This document shows, piece after piece, positions 1-3,000 of a stretch of DNA of 64,000 bases. How positions within the stretch are numbered: the stretch's first letter is position 1; each line of letters begins with the position of its first letter. Source of the DNA: an uncultured Ignavibacteriales bacterium. GTDB taxonomy: Bacteria > Zixibacteria > MSB-5A5 > GN15 > FEB-12. Position numbers: made by a program. Location: positions 1 through 64,000 of the forward strand of contig CAYXJN010000008.1 in assembly GCA_964464605.1 (NCBI GenBank), written 5' to 3'.

Positions 1-3000
1 CTGTTCAGTCCCTTTTTGGGTGGGTATCCAGACCGGATACCCACCCTTTTTTTGCGCTTTGAAAGACAAGCGAAAAGCTGTATATTTTCGGGTATCTTTT
101 ACCTCACTACGAATATGATTTGTCGGTGTTAGGCATGAACTTTTTACCCGGACAAATTGTTTTGCCAACGGGATTTACCGAATCGAGAAACTTACCGATA
201 CAGAGAATAGATTTGAGTAGATGATAGATAAGTGTAAGGGAGTTAAACAGATGATTCCAAGACGAGGTAACTTTTCGCGAGTAGGGCTAACCGGCATGCT
301 GATAGTTCTTTTCAGCATCAGTGCTGTTTCGGCCCGCGTGTACGAAAACGCCGCACAACCGAAGCCGTTTATCATTCCCGGTAAAGTAACCGTCGTGTTT
401 CACGACGGTGTCAACATCGAGAAAAAAAGCCAATCGTTTGGCCGTGTAAATTTTGGTATTCCAACGCTTGATCAAATTTTTGATAAAGCCCAGGCATCGG
501 CGGCTACCCGTATCTTCAACGGCAAAACCACCCAGTTTGCGACGGCAAGCGGAACGCTTGATTTATCCCGCTATTTTGAAATTACGGTGCCGGAAGATCA
601 AGATATAGCGGCGCTGGTTGAAGAATTAAAGCAAAATCCGAATGTAAAAATTGCCGAACCGGTGTGGGCGCTACCCTTGTTAGCGTCACCGAATGATCCG
701 TCATGGCCTAGCCAATGGGCAATGGAGCCGGCCGGTCCGGATCCTAATTTTTACACGGCTTGGGATACCGAAACCGGATCAGACAGTATCGTGTATGCGA
801 ACATCGATTCCGGAACACAGTATTCTCACCGTGATCTTGAACCGAATATCTGGGTGAATCCCGAAGAAGATATAGATGGTGACGGTGCGGTGTATGATCT
901 CGATGATCTCAATGGCATCGACGAAGACGGCAACGGCGTCATTGATGATCTTATCGGATACGACTTTTTTACCGGTCTGGGCGGAGGTGTTCAGGCGGGT
1001 GAAGATGCCGGTGTACCGGATTCAGACCCGAAAGACTGGGACGGACACGGTACACACGTAGCCGGTATTGTAGCTGCCGCAAATAACAACGGATTGGACG
1101 TAACCGGCGTAGCCGGCGGATGGTACGGCGGTCACCGTTCGTATCGCGGTGTTCGTATCATGGCTCTCCGAGTGGGTGCAACCGGATCGGACGGAAACGG
1201 CTATGTGAACTCCAATAACTGCGGAACGGCAATTGAATACGCCGCTGAAAACGGCGCTCGTGTTATTAACTGCAGCTGGGGATCATCCGGTACTGCTACG
1301 ATGATTGCCGGTATGGCTGCCTGCGCTTCTATGGGCGTTACCGTATGTCACGCCGCCGGAAATGATAATGCTGATGATCCTGATTATCTTGATGCCGATC
1401 CGAGCACGACCGTCTTATCGGTCGCGTCACTTGGTCCGAGCTCTGATGTTCGGTCCAGTTTTTCGAACTACGGAACATGGGTTGACGTTTCTGCTCCGGG
1501 TTCAAGCATTTTGAGCACCTATTCGAATCATTACACGGCAACAACCGCTACCCTTTCCGGTACCTCAATGGCCTCACCGATGGTAGCGGGTCTTGCTATG
1601 CTCATTCGTTCGGCCAAGCCGTCATTAAGCAAAGCACGTGTCGATAGCATAATCACAGCAACTGCTGATAATATCGATGCTTCGAATCCGACCTTCATTG
1701 GTCAGCTTGGCACCGGCCGTATTAATGCTGTCAGTGCACTGGCCGGTTTACCTATCGCGAAATTCACCTCAAGTATTTCTGATGGTAACGTTCCGCATAT
1801 GGTTAACTTTACGGATGCCTCTCCGGGCAGCCCATCGGCGTGGAAATGGTACTTTGGAACGGGTGATTCTTCGACACTACAGAATCCTTCATTTACGTAT
1901 CTTAATCCCGGCATCTATGATGTATCACTGCTTACGACTACCGGTAATCCGTTTGGTCCCGGTGAAGAACATCTGAAACGGTATGTCTGGGCCCGTGCTG
2001 ATACGATTAAGATCGATTCCGTTCAGGGTGTAAAGGGCAGCAACGTTGTTCTGCCGATTCGTTTGCACAACACGGCTCTGGTAAAAGAAATTAACTTTGC
2101 GTTTGAAGTGGAAGGCGCATCCGGTATTTCATATGTCAGTCACGACGTAACCGGGTTGAGAACGAGTTATTTCAGTTCAGTTACGATTGACGGATTCGAA
2201 TCACTTTCCAAAGTAAATATCAAGCTACGCTCCAGCGGTACCGGACAATCAGACTATCTTACTCCTGACACCGGTGTTGTGCTTAAGATAACCTTTGCGA
2301 TCGACTCAAGCGCCGTAACCGGAGTATATGTCGTGGACTCCGCCACGGTTGCCGGAACAAAGAAACCCAATATCTCCACGATTTACGGTGATTATTGGCC
2401 TATTCATATTCCGGGTAAAATCGTCGTTGCTGGATGTTGCGTCGGTATTCGCGGCAATGTGAACAATATAGGTGGTATTACAGTTGCCGACTTGACCTAT
2501 CTCGTGCAGTATCTGTTCAACGAAGGCGCAGCGCCTGCGTGTACAGAAGAAGCAAATGTGAACGGTCTAAGTTCTATTACTGTTGCCGATCTTACGTATT
2601 TAGTACAATACTTATTCAACGGCGGAGCACAGCCCCCGTCTTGCCCGTGATCGACTTTACATAACGTAAATAAAACGGCCGTAAGTCATTGACTTACGGC
2701 CGTTTGCTTTTTCGCGACATAGAGATATTTTGTTGCGTAACGGTCAATAAATTACCGTTTAATTTCGAGAATATCTTTGCCTTAGGTATTTGAACTTTTA
2801 TATATTATTGCACGTCATTTCGTATACATACGTCTGCTTACGTGTAAGAGTGGTATGTTTGTACGTTTTGCGTGTATATAGCCCTTTGTTTTTCAAAAAA
2901 CTGAAACAGAAGAAAAGAGAACCATAGTATGTCATGGAGACCCCAACGAATGAAACAAATGATAAATTGTCTGGCTGTTGTCTTATTGCTTTTGGCCGGT

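Follow-up and report, generated by a model that had tools for sequence, protein, structure and literature searches.

The secreted S8 subtilase encoded at the start of the window (the whole analyzed stretch, i.e., the first 64,000 nucleotides of contig CAYXJN010000008.1 of an uncultured member of the Zixibacteria, assembly GCA_964464605.1) ends in a 72-residue tail that, judged by its predicted fold, is a true type I dockerin module. We consider it likely that such tails bind cohesins borne by T9SS-anchored or dockerin-tagged proteins, giving a protease-rich, cellulosome-like surface assembly whose dockerins would be clasped by cysteines.

The tail module and the proteins that carry it

The survey's finding that the subtilase ends in a conserved 72-residue module was confirmed from the open reading frame and its sequence. 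The product has a signal-peptide-like N-terminus, and the predicted order of its parts is signal peptide, S8 N-terminal prodomain, S8 catalytic domain, PKD domain, type I cohesin and dockerin tail (Pfam: Peptidase_S8 5.4e-39, PKD_4 1.8e-8, Peptidase_S8_N 4.4e-6). The following features were located in the window:

251..2650, + strand: secreted S8 subtilase gene (ORF 221/251..2650), protein of 799 aa
797..1675, + strand: S8 catalytic domain of the subtilase (aa 183-475; Pfam PF00082, 134.7 bits)
1763..1945, + strand: PKD domain of the subtilase (aa 505-565; Pfam PKD_4 34.7 bits, PKD 29.6 bits)
1976..2431, + strand: predicted type I cohesin module of the subtilase, abutting the dockerin tail without a linker
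2432..2647, + strand: four-Cys dockerin tail of the subtilase, 72 residues, from sequence and predicted fold
2929..3879, + strand: gene next to the subtilase gene, secreted protein with a terminal T9SS type A sorting domain (CTD, ~3625-3864; TIGR04183 40.4 bits, Por_Secre_tail 32.6 bits)
27917..29293, - strand: second tail-bearing gene of the window, without a Pfam family; four-Cys tail at 27920-28144
47210..50431, - strand: S8 subtilase (L049) with a two-Cys dockerin tail at ~47213-47437
51435..53021, - strand: T9SS type A CTD protein, flanked by genes of dockerin-tagged peptidases
53158..55728, - strand: M14 carboxypeptidase (L031) with a dockerin tail at 53161-53373
55756..59538, - strand: Trypsin_2-type peptidase (L027) with a dockerin tail at 55759-55959, above the Pfam Dockerin_1 cut-off (32.7 bits)

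The tail at 2432..2647 consists of a CC head and two EF-hand-like loop-plus-helix repeats with N at loop position 1; a further Cys lies in the linker, and the module closes as G-x-x-P-P-x-C-P. The C-terminus of the protein reads GCCVGIRGNVNNIGGITVADLTYLVQYLFNEGAAPACTEEANVNGLSSITVADLTYLVQYLFNGGAQPPSCP, followed by the stop codon. Two 151-nt contigs of an RNA library fall on 1919-2243, with the rest of the subtilase gene uncovered, and may represent DNA carry-over.

A tail HMM, built from phmmer matches and run on all six-frame ORFs of at least 60 aa of the genome, matched 64 ORFs, 61 of them at a domain E-value below 1e-8. The survey had counted 57 tagged proteins, all with the tag within 8 residues of the C-terminus; of the 61 carriers found here, 59 have a tag that ends 0-5 residues before the stop, and two do not. 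One copy (L058, C8:113548-116001) directly follows the signal peptide, while in the GSDH protein L006 on C4 the codon CAA replaces the stop behind Cys-Pro and the reading frame continues for 86 aa. Nor is the module strictly C-terminal, as had been claimed: besides the N-terminal copy here, internal and tandem copies occur in relatives, making up 345 of the 428 copies on the 150 best-scoring representatives in public data, and some of the proteins with such copies end in a T9SS CTD.

A signal-peptide-like start was found in 53 of the 61 tail proteins using a crude hydropathy rule. Peptidases (S8, M14, trypsin-like, M43/M12) and beta-propeller, FG-GAP, SBBP or beta-helix proteins make up most of the carriers, and the cargo also includes GSDH, PhoD and lysyl oxidase proteins. 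In agreement with the survey, the tail occupies the "anchor slot" of Sec-exported proteases and of FG-GAP, SBBP, beta-helix and choice-of-anchor B proteins, with the three choice-of-anchor B carriers confirmed, and in this genome it never shares a protein with a C-terminal T9SS domain. None of the 28 TIGR04183 places in the genome overlaps a tail. A Por_Secre_tail/PPC-like match in the carrier L034 is internal only.

Predicted dockerin fold, cysteine patterns and a putative clasp

Against the Pfam family Dockerin_1 (PF00404), the subtilase tail scored 15.7 bits (E 0.017), which is below the gathering cut-off of 22.9. The survey had counted only five tails over this cut-off, and more were recovered here: 17 of 25 six-frame matches, and 10 proteins by whole-protein hmmscan. 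Just 2 of the 30 four-Cys tails passed it (hmmscan). The description of the tag as a divergent dockerin with extra cysteines, which covary in position, is supported, and in the four-Cys form it is largely missed by family libraries. The AlphaFold2 model of the tail (pLDDT 89.5) comprises three helices at residues 22-33, 42-45 and 55-66, and a Foldseek search with this model against the PDB returned type I dockerins throughout the top ~35 matches (TM 0.72-0.82, rmsd 1.3-2.0 Å). Besides, a profile of 59 tails matched 24 PDB sequences (best E 3e-8), and all recognized molecule names were dockerin modules or dockerin-bearing enzymes. The tail thus has the two tandem segments of ~22 residues, each a 12-residue EF-hand-like loop plus a helix, in a predicted three-helix fold that define type I dockerins, and both of its helices bear a near-identical, strongly conserved surface sequence (ADLTYLVQYLFN). 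The possibility that the tail is a T9SS type B or novel CTD, or a lipid-anchor signal, was rejected because of its fold and of the internal copies in relatives.

Several cysteine patterns occur among the tails, and the four-Cys/Cys-Pro form represents just one of these subclasses. The tag had been described as a four-cysteine domain ending mostly in Cys-Pro, and this applies as far as the C-terminal Cys is concerned, which is present in 51 of 59 tails, and not to the complete pattern, as four cysteines occur in 30 and an exact CP end in 29 of the 59. In the 30 four-Cys tails, the cysteines at alignment columns 11, 12, 52 and 100 are all present together, and elsewhere the Cys of column 100 is accompanied by one in column 17 (9 tails) or in column 61 (11 tails). 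The number of cysteines is even in 44 of the 59 tails, and 4 have none. Across the genome, ORFs ending in CP far exceed the chance expectation, with 32 among 3998 ORFs of at least 120 aa (29 of them with the module) and ~2.8 expected from composition.

These patterns recall the "intramolecular clasp" of the R. flavefaciens ScaA dockerin, in which a residue one to three positions ahead of the conserved Gly (-1 to -3) touches another, often Pro, at the C-terminal end of the module (FEBS Open Bio 2013, PMC3821032). In that paper, the clasp is described as stabilizing and put forward as a general dockerin feature, with W(-1) at the N-terminal clasp position stacked on the C-terminal Pro (PMC3821032). 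Column 17 of our alignment is position -1 relative to the conserved Gly, and the two-Cys class accordingly combines a Cys at -1 with a Cys-Pro end. DSSP assigned a single beta-bridge to the tail model, from residue 10 to residue 74, which would place the CC head beside the terminal Cys. From their covariation in sequence, the tail cysteines resemble a covalent form of the clasp, which in the known cases depends on non-covalent contacts, by stacking or electrostatics. We hypothesize that the extra cysteines form disulfides joining both termini of the dockerin, and that in the four-Cys class a second disulfide would reach the inter-repeat linker.

The putative calcium-binding loops differ between the classes as well. 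In canonical dockerins, the Ca2+ ligands are Asp or Asn at loop positions 1, 3 and 5 and Asp at position 12. All 30 four-Cys tails retain N at loop position 3 and D at position 12, and the subtilase tail has Ile and Leu at loop position 5. At position 1 of the two loops, 26 and 27 of these 30 tails have Asn, versus Asp in 26 and 20 of the 29 other tails. In the four-Cys subclass, where both loops have Asn in place of Asp as the first calcium ligand, disulfides may take over part of the stabilizing role of calcium. The link between four cysteines and Asn recurs in unrelated metagenome copies (19 of 27); the association may also be due just to the shared ancestry of paralogues.

The genome is 100% complete, and searches of it for DsbA (PF01323, PF13462), DsbB (PF02600) and VKOR (PF07884) gave nothing at E<=1e-3, so that no machinery is recognizable for the proposed disulfides. 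This result would fit a different role of the cysteines, namely as metal ligands, those of the four-Cys class forming, e.g., a Cys4 site for Zn or Fe, as would the four invariant cysteines of 30 tails together with the loss of the acidic first Ca2+ ligand. We give this alternative a small chance. Many tails have just two cysteines, spatially paired (columns 17 and 100, or 61 and 100), which are insufficient for a tetrahedral site and compatible with one disulfide, and the adjacent CC would be awkward for the chelation of a single ion. Moreover, the tail proteins, with their signal-peptide-like starts, appear to be extracytoplasmic. A literature search for disulfide-bonded or calcium-independent dockerins returned, among the titles and abstract openings listed, only fungal cases, of unrelated fold, or engineered ones.

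Candidate cohesin partners, proposed T9SS anchoring and competing readings

The cohesin partner of the tag had been left as a guess, and candidate cohesins do exist in the genome, including one predicted in the ~150 residues ahead of the subtilase tail. This module (1976-2431) scored 20.4 bits against Pfam PF00963 on its own and 19 in the genome scan, both below the cut-off of 24.1. Its AlphaFold2 model is all-beta (pLDDT 87.8, pTM 0.84), and cohesins filled ranks 1-43 of a Foldseek search against the PDB (E 2e-10 to 3e-6, TM 0.6-0.83), in agreement with a predicted nine-stranded jelly-roll beta-sandwich as in type I cohesins. Two paralogues exceeded the Pfam cut-off (L065, 51.3; L063, 44.7). 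Pfam Cohesin was placed seven times in the genome, five times in ORFs ending in TIGR04183 T9SS tails and twice in dockerin-tail proteins, and a jackhmmer search from the subtilase cohesin gathered 15 ORFs, eight with the tail, six with a CTD and one with neither. Overall, the genome holds ~16 cohesin modules, eight on dockerin-tagged proteins and at least six on proteins with a T9SS type A sorting domain.

Scaffoldin-like proteins with a surface anchor are thus present: L065 combines two cohesins with Big_9 and a CTD, and L063, L066, L067 and L068 each combine a cohesin with a CTD. A protein of 285 aa composed of signal peptide, cohesin and CTD is conserved, its best 120 homologues being 39-82% identical; most of these 120 have PF00963 plus PF18962, and the named ones are Zixibacteria. 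In a same-strand cluster at C1:425.9-447 kb, cohesin-CTD genes are intermixed with dockerin genes. The T9SS components PorU (711.7 bits) and SprA were also found. A predicted complex of the L067 cohesin (residues 31-196) with the tail alignment scored 0.13 and 0.12, below the mark of 0.32, in a run without controls that weighs on neither side of the binding question.

Both modules are spread across the phylum, as the survey had held for the tag. The dockerin profile was found in 148 of the 151 phylum genomes searched, a cohesin-only profile likewise in 148 of 151, and the same three genomes have neither. These three genomes gave 122, 139 and at least 150 T9SS CTD matches, against 28 in the present genome, and in some families of the Zixibacteria the counts of CTDs and dockerins vary inversely. 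The co-absence spans two families and hence represents at most two independent events. Separately, and as a lead only, ESM Atlas cluster labels for the module name Zixiibacteriota and Planctomycetota.

We propose that the dockerin tail binds type I cohesins of the same genome non-covalently, and that at least six cohesin-CTD proteins would be exported and fixed to the outer membrane by the T9SS. On eight tagged proteins, the subtilase included, a cohesin directly precedes the dockerin, which would make chains or branching possible. In this way, a cellulosome-like assembly would form on the surface, with proteases as its main load instead of glycosidases. Since matching cohesins occur on outer-membrane-anchored proteins, such display is the most likely role of the tag, rather than a new sorting signal, and since the cohesins found are for the most part borne by proteins with a T9SS type A CTD, T9SS-anchored scaffoldins are the most likely point of attachment for the tagged cargo. 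The same location of the partners speaks against the distinct anchoring or sorting class that the survey had proposed. Together with the shared absence in three CTD-rich genomes, it makes the tag a probable non-covalent anchor, reliant on T9SS-anchored scaffoldins, and not an independent sorting class.

An autonomous C-terminal sorting or anchoring signal, with dedicated machinery, perhaps cleaved and independent of cohesins (cf. T9SS CTD, PEP-CTERM, LPXTG), would be in keeping with the location at the very C-terminus of 59 of the 61 proteins, the chain stop directly behind Cys-Pro in 29, the choice-of-anchor B carriers and the exclusion of a C-terminal T9SS CTD within this genome. We regard it as highly improbable, as C-terminal placement is also usual in classical dockerins and the predicted fold is that of a helical dockerin, not of a CTD beta-sandwich, a transmembrane segment or a tripartite sorting signal. 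As reported by the survey, the tail matches no NCBIfam sorting-signal model, and no NCBIfam family at all matched at E<=1. The N-terminal copy here, the internal or tandem copies in relatives (345 of 428), some with a T9SS CTD at the protein end, and the presence of matching cohesins with the same phyletic pattern all point away from such a signal. It also seems very unlikely that the tail is a dockerin-fold domain lacking a cohesin partner and serving as a calcium-dependent stabilizer or as a binder of envelope glycans or substrates. Cohesin-free roles have reportedly been suggested for some non-cellulosomal dockerins, the dockerins here outnumber the cohesins by ~60 to 16, and the sequences are very divergent from characterized cohesin-dockerin pairs. 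However, the presence and absence of the two modules match perfectly across 151 genomes, the conserved, near-identical helix surfaces fit a common protein partner, and a dockerin-to-cohesin ratio of 4:1 is ordinary in cellulosomes.

An extension of the proposed binding, which we consider unlikely, is that the tag is a piggy-back secretion signal, the cohesin-CTD carriers taking tagged proteins through the T9SS translocon. The cargo may then fold, and perhaps oxidize, in the periplasm, bind its carrier there and cross as a complex, so that a handful of CTD-bearing scaffoldins may export and anchor ~60 CTD-less proteins. If true, this would account for tagged proteins without a CTD and without a recognizable GspD-type T2SS (the genome has two secretin genes, neither at the GspD cut-off, 175 vs 351 bits), and for the few CTDs in dockerin-rich lineages as opposed to 122 to at least 150 in lineages without cohesin and dockerin. 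It would also explain why the Cys-clasped, possibly calcium-independent form evolved, as this form would need to be stable already ahead of its exposure to the calcium-rich exterior.

Relation to known systems and implications

Both predicted folds resemble those of clostridial and ruminococcal type I pairs (e.g., PDB 4fl4, 2ccl, 1ohz, 5nrk; cohesins 4ums, 6kgc, 1aoh), and the loop-helix repeat is duplicated in both, with Asp in position 12 of the loop. Dockerins at the C-terminus of enzymes, cohesins on anchoring or adaptor proteins and two near-identical repeats are likewise shared. In cellulosomes, near-identical dockerin repeats accompany dual binding modes. In contrast to those pairs, the organism here has an outer membrane, the anchor is a T9SS CTD and not SLH or sortase, and the cargo consists mostly of peptidases and propeller proteins. 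Neither the 61 dockerin proteins nor the cohesin proteins matched a GH or CBM family at E<=1e-3, unlike the dockerin-borne glycoside hydrolases and CBM-bearing scaffoldin of a cellulosome. The tails also differ from solved dockerins by the Cys-bearing head and the GPxPxxCP extension, which have no counterpart there (the alignments span profile positions 9-65 only), by Asn for Asp at calcium-ligand position 1 in the four-Cys class, and in that most four-Cys tails fall below the Pfam cut-off.

Compared to the T9SS type A CTD (TIGR04183 / PF18962), the tail is likewise a C-terminal tag of ~70-80 residues on secreted surface proteins, used alternatively within the same genome, while fold and sequence are unrelated. 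The T9SS CTD is a secretion signal cleaved by PorU, whereas the dockerin is a binding module that also occurs in internal copies.

The combination of dockerin-bearing enzymes with a T9SS-CTD cohesin scaffoldin is an architecture already proposed for the Cloacimonadota, in a study on Ca. Stygibacter, where a cellulosome-like complex was inferred from MAGs alone (Front Microbiol 2021, PMC8542988). There too, signal-peptide enzymes (including an S8 peptidase) have C-terminal dockerins and the cohesin scaffoldin has a T9SS-type CTD, but the complex has one giant scaffoldin of 3,755 aa with CBMs and a handful of enzymes (PMC8542988). The system described here has instead several small or medium-sized cohesin-CTD proteins, eight enzymes with a cohesin-dockerin tandem, ~60 dockerins per genome, a phylum-wide distribution and cysteine patterns, the last of which are not mentioned in the accessible text of PMC8542988.

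Our literature searches found no paper joining Zixibacteria or Zixiibacteriota with dockerin, cohesin, T9SS or type IX secretion, and for Zixibacteria and cellulosome a single paper, which judging by its title is unrelated. The four-Cys class and most of the cohesins form an annotation gap, as they are unnamed or called just "T9SS type A sorting domain-containing protein". The Cys-clasped, Asn-for-Asp dockerins would represent a natural covalent clasp, possibly calcium-independent, of practical value for surface display and for the design of cellulosomes.

Sediments, sludge and bioreactors commonly harbor Zixibacteria, which are uncultured, and we know of no description of how they display their large secreted proteome. 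If our reading is true, most Zixibacteria arm their surface with proteases via a T9SS-hung cohesin-dockerin system, a "proteolysome" and not a cellulosome, with consequences for models of their part in the turnover of protein and necromass.

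A dockerin at the end of secreted proteins

The open reading frame (ORF) 221/251..2650 (+) encodes a protein of 799-809 residues, in which Pfam recognises an S8 subtilase, its N-terminal prodomain and a PKD domain, and which ends, as the survey's finding held, in the 72-residue tail followed by the stop codon. The gene is intact and near-identical in contigs from independent metagenome studies (bioreactor, activated sludge, aquaculture, sludge and rhizosphere); one rhizosphere contig covers window positions 1-4000 and shows 17 differences, all outside the tail.

The 2.82 Mb genome (18 contigs) was translated in six frames into stop-to-stop ORFs of at least 60 residues and searched by phmmer with the subtilase tail, and a hidden Markov model (HMM) was then built and rerun. 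The phmmer search matched 60 ORFs and the HMM 64, 61 of them with domain E<1e-8. The tail pattern is real and well beyond chance: 32 of the 3998 ORFs of at least 120 residues end in Cys-Pro, where composition predicts about 2.8, and 29 of these 32 carry the module. Several copies stand out.

C8:113548-116001 (-), L058: 818-residue ORF with the dockerin, CC head included, immediately after the signal peptide; no Pfam family besides dockerin; the sole N-terminal copy in the genome
C4:162425-164284 (-), L006: glucose/sorbosone dehydrogenase (GSDH family) with a four-Cys tail
C7:167057-167764 (L023), C3:313714-314118 (L024) and C1:232713-233123 (L035): tail-bearing short ORFs (135-236 residues) lacking a signal-peptide-like start

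In L006, CAA (Gln) stands where a stop is expected after Cys-Pro, and reading continues for 86 residues; a near-identical public protein of 473 residues terminates at Cys-Pro. This read-through reflects either stop-codon loss or an assembly error. The three short ORFs could stem from fragmented or frameshifted genes, or their boundaries may be wrong.

By predicted fold and remote sequence similarity, the tail is a dockerin. An AlphaFold2 model built from the alignment of 59 tails (A1) has a mean pLDDT of 89.5 and three helices. Compared with the PDB by Foldseek, it finds nothing but dockerins, chiefly of type I, down to about rank 35 (TM 0.72-0.82, normalised by target length; rmsd 1.3-2.0 Å), at modest E-values of about 1e-3, in line with the short length of 70 residues. 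The A1 profile matched 24 PDB sequences (best E 3e-8); judged by their names, every one is a dockerin module or an enzyme that bears one. These alignments span profile positions 9-65 only, so no solved structure offers an equivalent of the CC head or of the GPxPxxCP end.

On its own, the subtilase tail scores 15.7 bits against Dockerin_1, where the cut-off is 22.9, and none of the NCBIfam models hits it at E<=1. The earlier figure of five tails reaching the Dockerin_1 cut-off was too low, as 17 of 25 six-frame matches and, by hmmscan, 10 proteins do so. The subclass overlooked by libraries is that of the four-Cys tails, of which only 2/30 pass.

The survey's finding had also counted 57 strictly C-terminal proteins. 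Within this genome the tail ends 0-5 residues from the stop in 59 of 61 ORFs, but the position is not strict, given L058 and the public relatives. The profile matched 51,924 public cluster representatives at E<=1e-3, the weaker of which will include ordinary dockerins, and 17,648 at E<=1e-10. The best 150 are mostly proteins with 2-12 module copies; 345 of their 428 copies are internal, and several such proteins end T9SS-CTD-like (CTD, the T9SS type A sorting domain). The C-terminal site is therefore the usual dockerin place and no requirement of the module. Among the representatives P0168-P0317 are 'poly-dockerin' proteins that hold 4-12 tandem copies, with T9SS-CTD-like ends in some and Cys-Pro in others.

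Cysteine classes and a putative clasp

The description of the tag as four-Cys and Cys-Pro-ended applies to a part of the family: the four-Cys pattern (CC head, linker Cys, terminal Cys) occurs in 30/59 tails and the exact CP end in 29/59, but the rest show other patterns and four are Cys-free. A terminal Cys is present in 51/59. Outside the four-Cys class it is paired with a Cys just before the conserved Gly (9 tails) or at second-loop position 4 (11 tails). Cysteine positions in A1 covary as pairs or quartets, and their number is even in 44/59 tails. Identical classes are seen in the public copies, 270 of 428 of which, many internal ones included, retain the terminal Cys.

Cysteine classes, by profile columns, among the 428 module copies of the best 150 public representatives
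(6,51,75): 80 copies
(11,75): 77 copies
none: 51 copies
(6,7,41,75): 27 copies, 23 of them terminal

Column 11 is position -1 relative to the conserved Gly. Slutzki et al. (PMC3821032) describe a stabilising 'intramolecular clasp' of residues -1 to -3 with a C-terminal residue, in which W(-1) stacks on P75, and put it forward as a general dockerin feature. The Cys(-1)...Cys-Pro pair would be a covalent analogue of that clasp. In the tail model, the sole DSSP beta-bridge joins residue 10 to residue 74, beside the head and tail cysteines.

Loop position 1 is Asn in 26 and 27 of the 30 four-Cys tails (two loops), and in 19/27 public four-Cys copies; it is Asp in 26 and 20 of the 29 other tails. 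This association suggests that putative disulfides may partly substitute for calcium in the four-Cys class, and it could alternatively stem from shared paralogue ancestry. A metal site remains a rival reading for the four-Cys class. Enzymatic disulfide formation has against it that DsbA, Thioredoxin_4, DsbB and VKOR gave no match at E<=1e-3 in this 100%-complete genome. It codes for some 55 secreted modules in which conserved cysteines occur in pairs.

Predicted cohesin partners and cargo

The cohesin partner, previously regarded as a guess, has a candidate within the subtilase gene itself, at window positions 1976-2431 between the PKD domain and the tail (20.4 bits against Pfam Cohesin, sub-threshold). 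Modelled from an alignment with its paralogues and homologues (A3), it is a predicted beta-sandwich (pLDDT 87.8) whose first 43 Foldseek matches are cohesins throughout (E 2e-10, TM <=0.83). Pfam Cohesin matches 7 places in the whole genome, 5 within ORFs ending in a CTD, and jackhmmer seeded with the subtilase cohesin found 15 ORFs.

Cohesin ORFs of the genome
With dockerin (8; cohesin immediately N-terminal to the tail): three subtilases, an M43 peptidase, three choice-of-anchor B proteins, a 278-residue signal peptide-cohesin-dockerin protein
With CTD (6): L065 (two cohesins), L063, L066, L067, L068, L070 (weak match)
With neither (1): 229 residues

L067 and L068 (about 295 residues each) consist of signal peptide, cohesin and CTD. 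This family is conserved: the best 120 homologues are 39-82% identical, most with precomputed PF00963+PF18962. Those that are named come from Zixibacteria MAGs and carry no more than the label 'T9SS type A sorting domain-containing protein'. The T9SS components PorU (711.7 bits) and SprA are encoded in the genome. Listed below are three gene groups and one short stretch of the window.

C1:425900-446963 (+): dockerin-tail genes L047, L044 and L057 alternating with CTD genes L064, L062, L065 and L063 (cohesin, Big_9), an arrangement similar to a scaffoldin gene cluster
C4:195094-200939 (-): adjacent L020, L019 and L004, choice-of-anchor B (TIGR04312), each with choice_anch_B, cohesin and four-Cys dockerin
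Window 43985-59538: rich in peptidases, with S9 prolyl oligopeptidase (43985-46096), S8-dockerin, PD40 protein, T9SS-CTD protein, M14-dockerin and trypsin-like-dockerin
Window 3619-3650: 32 bases encoding the conserved CTD motif NYPNPFNP, a stretch common to many genes and organisms, on which many unrelated metagenome contigs pile up

Among the 61 tail proteins, Pfam identifies S8 (9), M14 (2), Trypsin_2 (2) and M43/M12 (2) peptidases, GSDH (2), PhoD, lysyl oxidase, FG-GAP/ASPIC, DUF7948+SBBP, beta-helix, Kelch/galactose-oxidase-like, C-type lectin and Big_9/cadherin proteins, and no glycoside hydrolase or CBM. A signal-peptide-like start is assigned to 53/61 by a crude hydropathy rule, and several of the remainder resemble non-ATG starts or fragments. 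Neither of the two secretin genes reaches the GspD equivalog cut-off.

Distribution in the phylum and precedents

In agreement with the claim that the module is widespread in Zixibacteria, the dockerin profile matched 148/151 genomes of the phylum sample, as did a cohesin-only profile of the 15 own-genome modules (A4). Neither profile matches the remaining three, G065 and G114 (family f13) and G089 (f17), which are 94-96% complete. With 122, 139 and at least 150 CTD matches (28 in the own genome), they are not poor in secreted proteins. All 12 genomes with at least 100 first-look CTD candidates (100-239; f9, f13, f14, f17) have 0-22 dockerin matches: G062, G118, G124, G066, G078, G079, G084, G105, G129 and the three named. 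Most other genomes have at least 38, dockerin-rich genomes carry 27-98 CTD candidates, and families f6 and f7 have few of either. The two tagging strategies may trade off against each other; as the counts are lower bounds and relatives are not independent, the pattern represents at most a few evolutionary events.

Our literature search found no paper combining Zixibacteria with dockerin, as stated before, nor one with type IX secretion, nor Zixiibacteriota with dockerin, cohesin or T9SS; Zixibacteria and cellulosome matched only a paper unrelated by its title. A 2009 review by Peer et al. reportedly covers non-cellulosomal cohesins and dockerins of many phyla. The nearest precedent is Ca. Stygibacter (Cloacimonadota). 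Williams et al. 2021 (PMC8542988) infer that enzymes of this organism, an S8 peptidase among them, carry dockerins at their C-termini, and that a cohesin scaffoldin is attached to the surface through a CTD.

Overall, sequence and models support that the family is a real, phylum-wide and heavily expanded set of dockerins, with matching cohesins, as predicted partners, on proteins predicted to be T9SS-anchored. The type of system is itself known; this form of it is new, with a so far unreported dockerin subclass bearing a putative cysteine clasp and with mostly proteases as its cargo.
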